A stretch of 64,000 bases of DNA from Escherichia coli (GTDB lineage Bacteria; Pseudomonadota; Gammaproteobacteria; Enterobacterales; Enterobacteriaceae), in the NCBI RefSeq assembly GCF_009931435.1, contig NZ_CP043414.1; one strand, 5' to 3'. A program made the translations under genes and the position numbers. This document shows positions 1,952 through 30,750 of the stretch, piece by piece (position 1 is the stretch's first letter; every line of letters begins with the position of its first letter). The notes beneath the pieces were generated by a model that had not been told where the DNA came from, did no database searches, and saw only the letters and a list, made by a program, of their open reading frames with translations.

Positions 1952-3985
1952 TTATTTCACCTGATGGCCCGGTTTAGCACCGGCATCCGGGCTTAGCAGG
2001 AAAATATCTTTCCCGCCAGGACCGGCAGCCATCACCATGCCTTCAGAGATACCGAAGCGCATTTTACGTGGTGCCAGGTTAGCCACCATAATGGTGTGAC
2101 GACCAATAAGTGCCTGCGGATCCGGGTAAGCAGAACGAATGCCGGAGAAGACATTGCGTTTTTCACCGCCGAGATCCAGTGTCAGGCGCAGCAGTTTGTC
2201 AGAACCTTCAACAAACTCTGCGTTTTCAATCAGCGCCACGCGCAGGTCAACTTTAGCGAAGTCGTCAAAGGTGATGGTTTCCTGAATCGGATCATCTGCC
2301 AGCGGGCCAGTCACGGGGGCGGCAGTGGCTTTCACTTCTTCTTTAGACGCTTCCACCAGTGCTTCAACCTGCTTCATATCGATGCGGTTATACAGCGCCT
2401 TGAACGGATTCACTTTGTGGCCCAGCAGCGGTTGCTGGATGCCATCCCAGGTCAGTTCCGTATTGAGGAATGCTTCTGCACGCTCGGTCAGTTTTGGCAG
2501 TACCGGCTTCAGGTAAGTCATCAGTACGCGGAACAGGTTAATGCCCATAGAGCAAATCGCCTGCAGGTCAGCATCGCGACCTTCCTGCTTCGCCACCACC
2601 CACGGAGCCTGTTCATCGACATAGCGGTTAGCCAGGTCAGCCAGTGCCATGATTTCGCGCACTGCTTTACCAAATTCACGGCTTTCCCATGCTTCACCAA
2701 TCACTTCAGCGGCATCCGTGAAGGTTTTGTACAACTGCGGGTCAGCCAGTTCGCTTGCCAGCACGCCGTCAAAACGTTTGTTGATAAAGCCTGCGTTACG
2801 GGACGCCAGATTAACCACTTTGTTGACGATATCGGCATTCACACGCTGAACGAAATCTTCCAGGTTGAGATCGATATCATCAATGCGCGAAGAGAGTTTC
2901 GCAGTGTAGTAGTAACGCAGGCTGTCAGCGTCAAAATGATTCAGCCAGGTGCTGGCTTTAATAAAGGTGCCGCGAGACTTGGACATCTTCGCGCCGTTCA
3001 CCGTTACATAGCCGTGAACAAACAGGTTGGTCGGCTTGCGGAAGTTGCTACCTTCCAACATGGCAGGCCAGAACAGGCTGTGGAAGTAAACAATATCTTT
3101 ACCGATGAAGTGGTACAGCTCGGCGGTGGAGTCTTTCTTCCAGTATTCATCGAAGCTTACGCTGTCGCCGCGCTTGTCACACAGATTCTTGAAAGAACCC
3201 ATGTAGCCAATCGGTGCGTCCAGCCAGACGTAGAAATATTTGCCCGGCGCGTTCGGAATTTCAAAACCGAAGTACGGTGCATCGCGGGAGATATCCCATT
3301 GTTGCAGGCCAGATTCAAACCACTCCTGCATTTTGTTTGCCACCTGCTCCTGCAACGCACCGCTGCGGGTCCATGCCTGCAGCATTTCGCTGAAAGAGGG
3401 CAGATCAAAGAAGAAGTGTTCAGAATCACGCATTACCGGGGTAGCGCCAGAAACCACCGATTTCGGCTCGATCAGTTCAGTCGGGCTATATGTTGCGCCG
3501 CAGACTTCACAGTTATCGCCGTATTGATCCGGTGATTTACATTTCGGGCAGGTGCCTTTCACAAAACGGTCCGGCAGGAACATGCCTTTTTCCGGATCGT
3601 ACAGTTGAGAGATGGTGCGGTTTTTAATAAAACCGTTTTCCTTCAGGCGAGTATAGATAAGCTCAGACAACTGACGGTTCTCTTCACTGTGCGTCGAGTG
3701 ATAGTTGTCATAGCTGATGTTAAAGCCTGCGAAATCAGTCTGATGCTCCTGACTCATTTCGCCAATCATCTGCTCCGGAGTGATACCAAGCTGCTGAGCT
3801 TTCAGCATGATTGGTGTACCGTGGGCATCGTCGGCGCAGATGAAGTTGACCTCGTGGCCGCGCATTCGCTGGTAACGGACCCAGACATCAGCCTGGATGT
3901 GCTCCAGCATATGGCCGAGGTGGATTGAGCCGTTAGCGTACGGCAGTGCGCACGTCACCAGAATTTTCTTCGCGACTTGAGTCAT
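1952..3985 (-). CDS. metG: Methionine--tRNA ligase
   Basis: 680-aa ORF with HIGH-type motif ([11 protein letters not shown]) and KMSKS motif. Start set at the internal ATG giving [10 protein letters not shown] (677 aa) from memory of K-12 MetG; the ORF could begin 3 codons upstream (MPTMTQ). Confidence 0.95.
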
Positions 3986-26574: not shown

Positions 26575-27354
26575 ATGACGATGAATTCATTCGAGCGAAG
26601 GAATAAGATCATCCAATTAGTGAATGAACAGGGAACCGTGCTTGTTCAGGATCTGGCGGGAGTATTTGCTGCCTCGGAAGCGACAATCCGTGCCGATTTG
26701 CGCTTTCTCGAACAAAAAGGCGTGGTTACGCGCTTTCATGGCGGTGCGGCGAAAATAATGTCCGGTAATAGTGAAACCGAGACCCAGGAAGTCGGGTTTA
26801 AAGAGCGATTTCAGCTCGCCAGCGCGCCCAAAAACAGAATAGCGCAGGCGGCAGTCAAAATGATCCATGAAGGGATGACCGTTATTCTCGACAGCGGAAG
26901 TACCACAATGCTTATCGCCGAAGGATTAATGACCGCTAAAAATATCACGGTGATTACCAACAGTCTCCCGGCTGCGTTTGCCCTTTCCGAAAATAAAGAC
27001 ATTACTCTGGTCGTCTGCGGTGGCACGGTCCGCCATAAAACGCGCTCGATGCATGGTTCCATTGCCGAGCGTTCATTGCAGGATATTAATGCCGATTTAA
27101 TGTTTGTCGGTGCTGATGGTATTGATGCGGTTAATGGTATTACGACCTTTAATGAAGGTTATTCGATTAGCGGGGCGATGGTCACCGCCGCTAATAAAGT
27201 GATTGCCGTTCTCGATTCATCGAAATTTAACCGTCGCGGTTTTAATCAGGTACTGCCAATCGAAAAAATTGACATTATTATTACCGATGATGCTGTGTCT
27301 GAGGTGGATAAACTGGCATTGCAGAAGACACGGGTAAAATTAATTACGGTGTAG
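26575..27354 (+). CDS. gatR: DeoR-family repressor of the gat operon (uninterrupted)
   Basis: 259-aa continuous ORF with N-terminal DeoR helix-turn-helix and C-terminal sugar-phosphate-binding domain; no insertion element present. Confidence 0.9.
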   Translation: MTMNSFERRNKIIQLVNEQGTVLVQDLAGVFAASEATIRADLRFLEQKGVVTRFHGGAAKIMSGNSETETQEVGFKERFQLASAPKNRIAQAAVKMIHEGMTVILDSGSTTMLIAEGLMTAKNITVITNSLPAAFALSENKDITLVVCGGTVRHKTRSMHGSIAERSLQDINADLMFVGADGIDAVNGITTFNEGYSISGAMVTAANKVIAVLDSSKFNRRGFNQVLPIEKIDIIITDDAVSEVDKLALQKTRVKLITV

Positions 27355-27365
27355 TATTGTTCTGT

Positions 27366-27399
27366 ATGCCGGATAAGGTATTTACACTGCATCCGGCAT
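27366..27399. repeat. REP element
   Basis: atgccggataaggtatttacactgcatccggcat palindromic unit between gatR and yegS. Confidence 0.6.
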
Positions 27400-27435
27400 T
27401 TCGGATTCTCCCTGGTTCAAGAGAGAATAGTTTGA

Positions 27436-28335
27436 TTAACGCAATAATGGACAATCTGGTGGTAATCGACAACGCAACGCCGCCGGAAGTATTTCAATAT
27501 GAAAGTTTTGTCCGCTCAACGGTTCGCCATCAAGATTAAAAGTGATTTCGTGTGGGGCTTGTATATCAAACCACGACGAAGCGCCTTCGATAATATTCGG
27601 GTTATCTTCGTCAGATTTTAAGGTTGATACGAGAGCCGGAAGAATTTCATCGCCGGTAAAAATGCGCAGTTGCAGCAAGCCATCGTTAATTAACGCGTTC
27701 GGACACAATTGCTGACCGCCACCGGCCTGACGCCCGTTACCAATACCAATGACCAGGGCGTCACCTTGCCAGTGAAAGTTTTCACCGCGGATTTCACAAC
27801 GGTCCGGTTGCAGAGTATCCATGCGCATTAAGCCATGAATGATGTAAGAGACGCCACCCAGCGCGGCTTTTAATTTTTCCGGCGTTTCTGTGGTAATACG
27901 CGTCCCAAATCCGCCTGTCGCCATATTAATAAAACAGGTTTGTTTGTTGACCTGCGCCATATCTATCGCAATGGCGTTACCGGCAATTGCCAGTTTCAGC
28001 GCCTTATCCAGTGCCTCAGGAATCCCTACACTGGTGGCAAAATCATTGGCGGTTCCTAATGGCAAAATTCCCAGCGCGGGTATGTCATCCCCCTCACACT
28101 GAATCAACGCCGTAGAAACTTCATTAATGGTGCCATCGCCACCACCGGCAATCACCGTTGCGACGCCCAACTTCCGGGCCTCCTCTACATATCGTGCGGC
28201 ATCGCCTTTCTCCCAGGTGACCCGCACATGGATCGTCATTCCTTCCTCACGCAACAGCATAATTGCTTCGCGCAAGGGTAGATTGTCAGTACTTTTGCCA
28301 TTAAGAATCAGTAAGCTGGCGGGAAATTCTGCCAT
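27436..28335 (-). CDS. yegS: Lipid kinase YegS (DAGK/sphingosine-kinase-like fold)
   Basis: 299-aa ORF with GGDGT motif ([13 protein letters not shown]). Confidence 0.9.
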
Positions 28336-28741
28336 GATCGTATGTGCCTTTATGATTGGTCTGTAGATAGTGTAGAGCAGAAAACAAAAGGTGGAGTCAG
28401 AACAGGATGAAAGTCGGAGGATAAAAAGTCAGTTCAAGTATGGAGGATTCAGTGGTTACCACCAGGAGCTTGCAATGGGGGACAGCGAATACTAACGGCT
28501 GCCACCGATAAATTTCAAAAAAGAGCATATACCTAATATTCAACTAAACAGTGGCATCTTCAATATAATATATTAAAGCCCCCATGGAGTTACCCTGAAG
28601 GGCCTCAATGTCCGTAATTCCTACTTATGTAGGAAATGTTGTACAGAACATTTATTATAATCCTATTCAATTATAATAATCATGCCATTATTATATTTAA
28701 ACACTAGAGAGTGTCGTTGGTATTTAATGGGGGAAGGTGAG

Positions 28742-29059
28742 ATGAAAAAGATAGCTGCTATATCATTAATTAGTATTTTTATTGTGTCTGGTTGTGCTGT
28801 GCATAATGATGAGACAAGTATCGGTAAATTTGGTCTTGCATATAAAAGTAATATTCAGCGTAAACTCGATAACCAATACTACACCGAAGCCGAAGCTTCT
28901 TTAGCCAGGGGCAGAATATCTGGTGCAGAAAATATAGTAAAAAATGATGCAGCCCATTTCTGTGTTACTCAGGGCAAAAAAATGCAGATAGTTGACCTGA
29001 AGACAGAAGGTGCAGGATTACATGGCGTCGCTCGTCTGACATTCAAATGTGGAGAGTGA
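28742..29059 (+). CDS. yegR: Small lipoprotein
   Basis: ATG at 28742 preceded by ggggaaggtgag; MKKIAAISLISIFIVSGCAVH has a lipobox (VSGC); 105 aa. Track ORF carries an unlikely 20-codon extension. Gene symbol from position and size, from memory. Confidence 0.65.
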   Translation: MKKIAAISLISIFIVSGCAVHNDETSIGKFGLAYKSNIQRKLDNQYYTEAEASLARGRISGAENIVKNDAAHFCVTQGKKMQIVDLKTEGAGLHGVARLTFKCGE

Positions 29060-29217
29060 GAATATTTTTTGGTAAGCGTCAAACATGCGCGTTCTGGTTG
29101 TGCTTAGCCGGAACCTGTGCGAGCACGATGCCGTTACGTGAAAGGCATCGTGCTATGAAGGGAGATTCTATCGATGTGGTCAATGGAAGACGGTGACCAG
29201 GGATAGGGCTTATGCAT

Positions 29218-29304
29218 AAAAAATAAGCCCGTGTAAGGGAGATTACACAGGCTAAGGAGGTGGTTCCTGGTACAGCTAGCATTTTATGGGTTATGTTTTT
29301 CAGC
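29218..29304 (-). ncRNA. cyaR: CyaR (RyeE) Hfq-dependent small RNA
   Basis: Minus-strand sequence GCUGAAAAACAUAACCCAUAAAAUGCUAGCUGUACCAGGAACCACCUCCUUAGCCUGUGUAAUCUCCCUUACACGGGCUUAUUUUUU matches the CyaR sequence as I recall it, including the terminator hairpin and U-tail. Confidence 0.85.
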
Positions 29305-29388
29305 GAAACGGATGATAACCTTAATAAATGCAGCTGTATGTGATCGGTTTCTAAGAATTTTCCATCCGGGAAAAATAATCGAAATTAA

Positions 29389-30750
29389 TCACTTACCGTG
29401 GGGGTTACGCGTGGTTTCCCCGGAGAAATGACGCATCAGCAGCGCGTAATTTAGCTCAAGATCCTGCGGCACCGGGAGCCACACAGTATAACCATCGCCT
29501 GGTGCTACCGGCATAGCTTCGCCTTTGGCGTTTTCCATGTGCTCAAGGGTAAAGTTAATGTTGCCTTGCGGCGTCATCAGCTCAAGGCTGTCGCCAACGG
29601 AGAATTTATTTTTCACCGCTACCGCCGCGAGGTCCCCCTTGCGCTCACCGGTAAACTCACCAACAAACTGCTGGCGGTCAGAAACCGAATAACCGTATTC
29701 GTAGTTCTGATAATCGTCGTGAGTATGACGACGCAGGAAACCTTCGGTATAGCCACGATGCGCCAGACCTTCCAGAGTTTCCAGCAGGCTGGTATCGAAC
29801 GGTTTGCCCGCAGCGGCATCATCGATAGCTTTACGATAAACCTGTGCGGTGCGTGCGCAATAGTAGAAAGATTTAGTACGGCCTTCGATCTTCAGCGAAT
29901 GCACGCCCATTTTGGTCAGGCGTTCTACATGGGCGATGGCGCGCAGATCTTTCGAGTTCATGATGTAAGTGCCGTGCTTATCTTCAAACGCGGTCATATA
30001 CTCGCCCGGACGCTGGGCCTCTTCGATCATAAACACTTTGTCGGTTGGTGCGCCGATACCCAGCGTCGGCTCAACATTTTGCACCGGAATCGGCTCGTAC
30101 TTGTGTACGATGTTGCCAACATCATCTTCTTTCCCTTCCTGGACGTTGTACTCCCAGCGGCAGGCGTTGGTGCAGGTGCCCTGGTTCGGGTCGCGCTTGT
30201 TGATATAGCCAGAGAGCAGGCAGCGACCGGAGTAGGCCATGCACAGCGCGCCGTGAACGAAGATCTCGATCTCCATATCCGGCACCTGATTGCGGATCTC
30301 TTCAATCTCTTCCAGCGACAGCTCGCGAGAGAGGATCACGCGGGTCAGGCCCATTTGCTGCCAGAATTTCACCGTCGCCCAGTTCACGGCGTTAGCCTGC
30401 ACCGAAAGGTGGATCGGCATTTCAGGGAAGTGCTCACGCACCAGCATAATCAGCCCTGGATCGGACATAATCAGCGCATCCGGCCCCATTTCCACCACCG
30501 GTTTCAGGTCACGGATAAAGGTTTTCAGCTTGGCGTTGTGCGGTGCAATGTTGACCACGACATAAAACTTTTTCCCCAGCGCGTGGGCTTCATTGATGCC
30601 GAGCTGAAGATTTTCGTGGTTGAATTCGTTGTTGCGCACACGCAGGGAATAACGCGGCTGGCCCGCATAAACAGCATCTGCGCCATAAGCGAAAGCGTAA
30701 CGCATATTTTTCAGCGTTCCCGCCGGGGAAAGGAGTTCCGGTTTAAACAT
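29389..30750 (-). CDS. yegQ: Peptidase U32-family protein
   Basis: 453-aa ORF MFKPELLSPAGTLKNMRYAFAYGADAVYAG, U32 collagenase-like family. Confidence 0.9.
   Translation of the reverse strand: MFKPELLSPAGTLKNMRYAFAYGADAVYAGQPRYSLRVRNNEFNHENLQLGINEAHALGKKFYVVVNIAPHNAKLKTFIRDLKPVVEMGPDALIMSDPGLIMLVREHFPEMPIHLSVQANAVNWATVKFWQQMGLTRVILSRELSLEEIEEIRNQVPDMEIEIFVHGALCMAYSGRCLLSGYINKRDPNQGTCTNACRWEYNVQEGKEDDVGNIVHKYEPIPVQNVEPTLGIGAPTDKVFMIEEAQRPGEYMTAFEDKHGTYIMNSKDLRAIAHVERLTKMGVHSLKIEGRTKSFYYCARTAQVYRKAIDDAAAGKPFDTSLLETLEGLAHRGYTEGFLRRHTHDDYQNYEYGYSVSDRQQFVGEFTGERKGDLAAVAVKNKFSVGDSLELMTPQGNINFTLEHMENAKGEAMPVAPGDGYTVWLPVPQDLELNYALLMRHFSGETTRNPHGK

Follow-up and report, generated by a model that had tools for sequence, protein, structure and literature searches.

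The spacer between the divergent genes yegS and yegR of Escherichia coli very probably represents a two-part divergent promoter region, which consists of a promoter for yegS and an EvgA-activated promoter for yegR and contains no other genetic element. The spacer was studied within a stretch of 64,000 nucleotides of contig NZ_CP043414.1 (hereafter the window), to which all of the coordinates given below refer. The coordinates of the different features, the EvgA box and its rarity, its likeness to known EvgA sites, the division of the spacer into three blocks of conservation and the lack of RNA or open reading frame (ORF) signals are results of the present analysis; the binding of EvgA, the co-induction of yegR and the EvgA regulon, the position of the yegS start site, and the SELEX binding of H-NS and RpoD are taken from the literature. 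The spacer is thus an ordinary regulatory region, and yegR is already on record as an EvgA target. Our results allow the spacer to be labelled in annotations as the yegS promoter plus the EvgA-dependent yegR promoter, and they make yegR an example of a low-GC, lineage-specific gene that is wired into a two-component regulon of its host by a single palindromic site.

Location and Composition of the yegS–yegR Spacer

The spacer occupies positions 28336–28741 (406 bp) and it is bounded by yegS on the minus strand and yegR on the plus strand. The genes in its vicinity are as follows:

26575–27354, plus strand: gatR, intact, 259 aa
27436–28335, minus strand: yegS, 299 aa, with DAGK_cat and YegS_C domains
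28742–29059, plus strand: yegR, 105 aa, ATG at 28742, with a lipoprotein-type signal (MKKIAAISLISIFIVSGC)
29221–29306, minus strand: CyaR (RyeE) sRNA in the yegR–yegQ spacer, Rfam RF00112, 100.7 bits
29389–30750, minus strand: yegQ/trhP

Near-identical E. coli genomes have the same gene boundaries in their RefSeq annotation, and the spacer itself is found in 5,423 of the 5,426 complete E. coli genomes. Its GC content is 38.2%, compared to 50.8% for the whole 64 kb window, and the AT-richness resides chiefly in the yegR half (33.6% GC in 28501–28741 vs. 44.8% in 28336–28500, the yegS half). An earlier reading of this DNA, made from the sequence only, had described an AT-rich divergent spacer of about 400 bp, the coordinates of which are exact, and had counted it among the larger non-coding stretches. 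This is in accordance with a survey of gap sizes in 40 kb of collinear annotated genome, where the spacer is the largest gap outside of an island: the sole bigger gap (~1.8 kb) is located inside the island and the next largest gaps measure 329, 307, and 278 bp. The same reading had found no element that could be assigned to the spacer, a statement that has to be revised in view of the presence of the yegS promoter and the EvgA box, and of published work on the binding of EvgA, RpoD holoenzyme, and H-NS to this region (PMC8147483, PMC3946193).

Compared to K-12 and all of the top database hits (best identity 99.8%, 5,426 genomes), the window carries an additional G in the G5 run at 28477–28481, which belongs to the unconserved middle segment. 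This G is due either to rare variation or to an error in the sequencing of the homopolymer.

Conservation of the Spacer within Escherichia

The conservation of the spacer was assessed in an alignment (A2) of ten Escherichia spacers that span the diversity of the database, including the representative of a divergent species (L007) and the strain N96. Three blocks can be demarcated in this alignment:

28336–28412, yegS side: mean pairwise identity 0.97 (0.92 to L007, 0.94 to N96), 69 of 77 columns invariant
28413–28613, middle: mean pairwise identity 0.75 (0.47 to L007, 0.54 to N96), 66 of 281 columns invariant
28614–28741, yegR side: mean pairwise identity 0.90 (0.72 to L007, 0.90 to N96), 82 of 130 columns invariant

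The block adjoining yegS thus retains an identity of 92–94% even to L007 and N96, the two most divergent of the Escherichia sequences. On the side of yegR, a block of 75 bp that comprises the EvgA box and the promoter is present in 5,395 of the 5,426 complete E. coli genomes; an identity of at least 99% is seen for this block in 3,316 genomes and for the whole spacer in 1,718.

The EvgA Box Upstream of yegR

Evidence for the regulation of yegR by EvgA, a response regulator that acts in the response to acid, is provided by a palindrome in the yegR-side block, which the by-eye sequence-only reading had missed:

28618–28635, unstranded: EvgA box TTCCTACTTATGTAGGAA, 18 bp, a perfect 7 bp inverted repeat with a 4 bp centre

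According to what Masuda and Church reportedly described in 2003, EvgA recognizes the sequence TTCPyTACA-NN-TGTAPuGAA (viz. TTCYTACANNTGTARGAA). The palindrome departs from this consensus by one mismatch (15 of the 16 specified positions agree), and it is the single match with two or fewer mismatches in the 64 kb window, in which 0.01 such matches are expected. In a control covering 36 kb of K-12 sequence over the classical EvgA targets, all of the matches at this threshold were located upstream of safA, ydeP, emrK/evgA, frc, and yfdX/ypdI. The confinement of these matches to the upstream regions of known EvgA targets supports the validity of the consensus and indicates that the yegR site belongs with them.

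The palindrome might alternatively be a chance occurrence or the operator of another regulator, in which case the induction of yegR by EvgA would be indirect (e.g., via YdeO or GadE). We consider this very unlikely, both in view of the rarity of the consensus match and on account of several other characteristics of the site. The cores TTCYTAC-N4-GTARGAA, which are found upstream of the EvgA-activated promoters (viz. safA-ydeO, ydeP, frc/yfdW, yfdX, and emrKY), are common to yegR, and its half-site cores equal those of six sites that precede known direct targets of EvgA. The centre TTAT of the yegR box, in contrast, is unlike the CA..TG-type centre of the other EvgA-activated promoters, and this difference is reflected in the result obtained with a weight matrix, in which the box ranks first in the window with a score of 14.6 bits, a value that is below those of the training sites (20–27 bits) because TTAT replaces the usual CA-NN-TG, and that is not significant relative to the maxima of shuffled windows (13.0 ± 2.1 bits); only six known sites went into this matrix. 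The location of the box upstream of the gene that it would regulate is as in the known targets, with 106 bp between the end of the box and the ATG of yegR, a distance that resembles those for safA (111 bp) and yfdX (97/135 bp); the corresponding distances are 173 bp for emrK, 243 bp for ydeP, and 251 bp for frc. Across E. coli the box does not vary, and nine of the ten diverse Escherichia spacers have it in identical form. The tenth, from the divergent L007, reads TTCCTACAAACGTAGGAA and retains both half-site cores, only central bases being changed in a manner that creates a CGTA half-site as in emrK. Lastly, yegR is counted in a review, along with ydeP, safA, yfdX, frc, and gadE, among the promoters to which EvgA binds strongly (PMC8147483).

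The Promoter and Expression of yegR

The box at 28618–28635 is followed by a sequence in which three overlapping −10 candidates and a ribosome-binding region can be recognized:

28656–28661, plus strand: −10 candidate TATAAT
28664–28669, plus strand: −10 candidate TATTCA
28672–28677, plus strand: −10 candidate TATAAT
28730–28741, plus strand: yegR Shine-Dalgarno region GGGGAAGGTGAG, conserved in alignment A2

In the known EvgA promoters, a T-rich sequence resembling a −10 element follows the box after 27–28 nt, and the equivalent position upstream of yegR is occupied by TATTCA, which is without the final T. At 28 nt past the box the sequence is CC-TATTCA in yegR, CC-TATTTC in safA, and CT-TATTTT in ydeP. 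The TATAAT hexamers flank TATTCA at a distance of 8 nt to each side, and none of the three candidates in the region 28656–28677 is clearly favoured. Depending upon whether the first TATAAT, TATTCA, or the second TATAAT is used, the box would be centred at −41.5, −49.5, or −57.5, respectively, of which −49.5 is the spacing common to safA, ydeP, emrK, frc, and yfdX. The −10 region (CTATTCAA) is invariant in alignment A2. From these sequence features, transcription of yegR is predicted to start at about 28668–28684, producing a leader of about 60–75 nt that would end in GGGGAAGGTGAG.

Just past the EvgA box there is also a perfect 10 bp inverted repeat composed of A and T only (28652–28661, TTATTATAAT; 28670–28679, ATTATAATAA), which flanks CCTATTCA and has a TATAAT in each of its arms. 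The possibility that this repeat is an operator was dropped, as neither N96 nor L007 has preserved it.

Published data on the expression of yegR concern both EvgA and Nac. The gene was found to be up-regulated 11.9-fold together with ydeO, yfdX, ypdI, emrK, frc, and oxc, which the authors credited to control by EvgA (PMC5811628). Among the entries listed from the start-site map of Kim et al. (2012), there is one start site for evgA and none for yegR, ydeP, b1500 (safA), yfdX, emrK, or yfdW (frc), and such an absence of start sites for yegR and other EvgA targets fits with a regulon that is silent and inducible (PMC3415461). A Nac ChIP-seq peak has been assigned to yegR (K-12 v2 coordinate 2165875) and the gene is down-regulated 22-fold upon induction of nac; by coordinate conversion this peak is located ~136 bp downstream of yegR, at roughly position 29195 of the window (PMC5217608). 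The effect of Nac on yegR may be indirect, evgA being repressed as well (PMC5217608).

For the YegR protein, no family was found in Pfam or NCBIfam. In contrast to the acid-resistance regulon that is activated by EvgA, yegR is not known to have a role in acid resistance.

The Promoter and Leader of yegS

The conserved block on the yegS side contains the following features:

28336–28362, minus strand: yegS 5′ leader, 27 nt, with the Shine-Dalgarno sequence AAGG at 28350–28347
28363–28412, minus strand: yegS core promoter, with the −10 element TACACT at 28374–28369 and a poor −35 element, ACTCCA, at a spacing of 17 bp

In the map of Kim et al. (2012), a yegS start supported by only 4 reads is placed at position 2166709 of NC_000913.2 with a 27 nt untranslated region, and its counterpart in the window is 28362 on the minus strand (PMC3415461). 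The yegS upstream sequence that accompanies this start site, as far as it is given, reads ...CTCTACACTATCTACA / ...TTCTGCTCTACACTATCTACA (PMC3415461). Relative to the published start, the hexamer TACACT extends from −12 to −7. The yegS start is the sole start site within the spacer among the entries listed from this map (PMC3415461), and in the work of Mendoza-Vargas et al. (2009) yegS appears as a primer only. The leader region is less structured than shuffled sequences (folding z = +1.70).

A search by eye for a sigma-E-type or a better sigma-70 promoter for yegS revealed no convincing sequence. Three candidates on the minus strand from a promoter scan (28518–28489, 28701–28673, and 28717–28690) are unsupported by the mapped start at 28362, and the yegS promoter predicted by Shimada et al. 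(TTTAAA-17-TATTAT, 28673–28701, minus strand) likewise disagrees with it (PMC3946193).

The Variable Middle of the Spacer and H-NS

The two conserved ends of the spacer are separated by a segment in which both indels and promoter-like sequences are abundant. The features noted in this segment and in its surroundings are:

28413–28613, unstranded: variable middle segment of ~200 bp, with indels, an AT-rich right part, and promoter-like hexamers
28505–28514, plus strand: CCGATAAATT, which matches an H-NS motif at 9 of 10 positions
28545–28574, plus strand: promoter-like TAAACA-18-TATATT, from the scan
28673–28701, minus strand: promoter-like TTTAAA-17-TATTAT, from the scan

The sequence CCGATAAATT was scored against TCGATAAATT, which we take to be the high-affinity motif of H-NS. 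Matches of this quality are not above chance, the window containing 6 of them where 5.15 are expected. The variability of the middle segment is due in part to a 9 bp insertion (ACTATTNNA) after position 28566, found in roughly half of the E. coli sampled, and in part to an insertion of ~70 bp in strain N96. The latter is found at about 3120–3200 of the N96 sequence L018 and aligns to about position 28468 of the window.

Promoter-like pairs of hexamers are in excess in the spacer (7 vs. 2.9 ± 1.6 in shuffled sequences). Two of them correspond to published predictions, as the spacer is itself among the H-NS-bound divergent "type-A" spacers of Shimada et al. (2014) and both of the promoters predicted there were recovered by our scan: TAAACA-18-TATATT is their "constitutive yegRZ promoter," which sits upstream of the EvgA box, and TTTAAA-17-TATTAT is their yegS promoter (PMC3946193). 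In Table 1 of that work the spacer is flagged HNS; both H-NS and the RpoD holoenzyme bound to it in vitro in genomic SELEX, the peaks being located to the spacer as a whole and not to its middle segment (PMC3946193). The 9 bp insertion splits the spacing of TAAACA-18-TATATT in the strains that carry it, about half of those sampled, and hence the predicted yegRZ promoter is without visible constraint. The two hexamer-based predictions in the literature are probably wrong and probably represent nothing other than AT-rich promoter-like sequence. With regard to silencing by H-NS, the GC content of 33.6% in 28501–28741 compares to 50.8% in the window, motif matches occur at the level of chance, and binding is known only from the published SELEX data.

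The middle ~200 bp of the spacer is poorly conserved filler in which no specific function is detectable, and it probably includes the junction between the ancestral DNA upstream of yegS and the yegR islet. It could be supposed that this segment is instead a regulatory polymorphism, in which the alleles of the 9 bp indel and the rarer insertions alter H-NS silencing, or read-through that originates at a promoter farther upstream, and thereby the strength of yegR induction in different lineages, or that the EvgA box, which lies 256 bp from the lipid kinase gene yegS on the opposite strand, also couples yegS to the acid response, but we regard this as quite unlikely.

A Proposed Mode of Action

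The features described above can be combined into the following working model of the two-part promoter region. At the yegS end, ~77 bp would hold a weak sigma-70-type promoter, from which transcription on the minus strand would begin at 28362 with an unstructured leader of 27 nt. At the other end, dimers of phosphorylated EvgA would bind in mild acid to 28618–28635, which precedes the −10 candidates by 20–36 bp, and the bound EvgA would activate the sigma-70 promoter of the small lipoprotein gene yegR through one of these three hexamers. While EvgA is inactive, the AT-rich region is probably silenced by H-NS, and EvgA would counter this silencing. We infer the start site of yegR, the geometry of its activation, and the antagonism with H-NS from the arrangement of these features.

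Searches for a Hidden RNA or Small Protein

In addition to regulatory sites, of which the yegS promoter and the EvgA box are now identified, the sequence-only reading had supposed that the spacer might hold small transcripts. This part of its supposition found no support, as the spacer has no Rfam match, no terminator, and no excess of structure. With regard to the two checks that it had proposed, transcription starts were looked up in a published map and an Rfam scan was run; among the entries listed from Kim et al. (2012), the yegS start is the only one in the spacer. The scan of 27300–29500 with E-values up to 10 yielded only noise matches of 14–15 bits in the spacer. The CyaR sRNA next door, in the yegR–yegQ spacer, was recovered at 100.7 bits, which demonstrates that these methods are able to detect a known sRNA in this region, and nothing comparable to it is seen within the yegS–yegR spacer. 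Folding of the spacer revealed no excess stability relative to shuffled sequences (z = −0.44 and −0.96 for the plus and minus strands, respectively), no terminator-like site was found in the spacer by a terminator scan, and a search for repeats identified short AT-rich two-copy chance matches but no repeat family. These results, along with the conservation analysis of the ORFs described below, agree with the earlier statement that no ORF, repeat, or structured RNA is apparent by eye.

The size of the spacer (406 bp), its excess of promoter-like hexamers, and the binding of RpoD holoenzyme to it in vitro (PMC3946193) could be accounted for by an unannotated sRNA or by a structured cis-regulatory leader (riboswitch, thermosensor, or attenuator). 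We consider such an RNA highly improbable, in view of the noise-level Rfam matches, the folding z-values (−0.44 and −0.96, and +1.70 for the yegS leader), and the lack of a terminator in the spacer. The yegS start as the only listed one in the spacer (Kim et al., 2012; PMC3415461) argues against it as well, and so does the text of the supplement to the 3′-end map of Adams et al. (2021), in which yegR and yegS are not mentioned. Furthermore, the middle segment, which lies outside of the two promoter blocks, is the least conserved and most indel-rich part of the spacer.

That the spacer encodes a small protein is scarcely credible: it does contain several ORFs of 21–48 codons, one of which (28608–28676, 22 aa) has AAGGG 6 nt before its ATG and lies inside the conserved block, but the conservation at this ORF falls where the EvgA box and the −10 region lie, its start codon is GAG in strain 2018-05-5CC, CCC in L007, and GTG in others, three ORFs over 28477–28481 are shifted in frame relative to K-12 by the 1 nt indel, and the RefSeq annotations of K-12 MG1655 and of eight further genomes that were inspected show no gene within the spacer.

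The Origin of yegR and Neighbouring Elements

The distribution of yegR provides information regarding the origin of the right part of the spacer. In Klebsiella pneumoniae, the locus tags of the yegQ and yegS orthologues (KPN_02532 and KPN_02533) are consecutive, and yegR is absent from this site. Homologues of YegR with 82–84% identity are found in Klebsiella sp. BIGb0407, in a Cedecea metagenome-assembled genome (MAG), and in an Enterobacteriaceae MAG (L009 2475–3318, L010 2429–3318, and L011 677–985). The homologues in L009 and L010 are located just downstream of an ORF of 149 aa, which is GNAT-like in L009, where a glutaminase-like gene is also found upstream. The EvgA box is absent from all three of these non-Escherichia homologues, and the relatedness of their upstream DNA ends after about 50 bp. 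The lack of yegR in Klebsiella pneumoniae, the differing context of the homologues, and the low GC content of both yegR (38.7%) and the right half of the spacer are most readily understood if yegR was inserted in a lineage-specific manner beside the cyaR integration hot spot. The comparison of these sequences thus indicates that yegR and its promoter constitute a lineage-specific insertion and that the EvgA site belongs to the Escherichia copy. The AT-rich DNA on the side of yegR looks to be horizontally acquired.

Several other elements were noted in the flanking regions. The terminator hairpin of CyaR is located at 29253–29226, and a remnant of the P2-like element PR-X (ogrK, yegZ), which in K-12 is found between yegR and cyaR, is missing from the window. 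A REP-like hairpin, TGCCGGATAAGG...CATCCGGCA (27367–27402, plus strand), lies in the gap that separates gatR from the 3′ end of yegS; it gives a weak, partial match to the Rfam family naRNA4, whose gathering score is not reached (26 bits). The gatR gene, which is split by IS3 in K-12 MG1655 and DH10B, is intact in the window.
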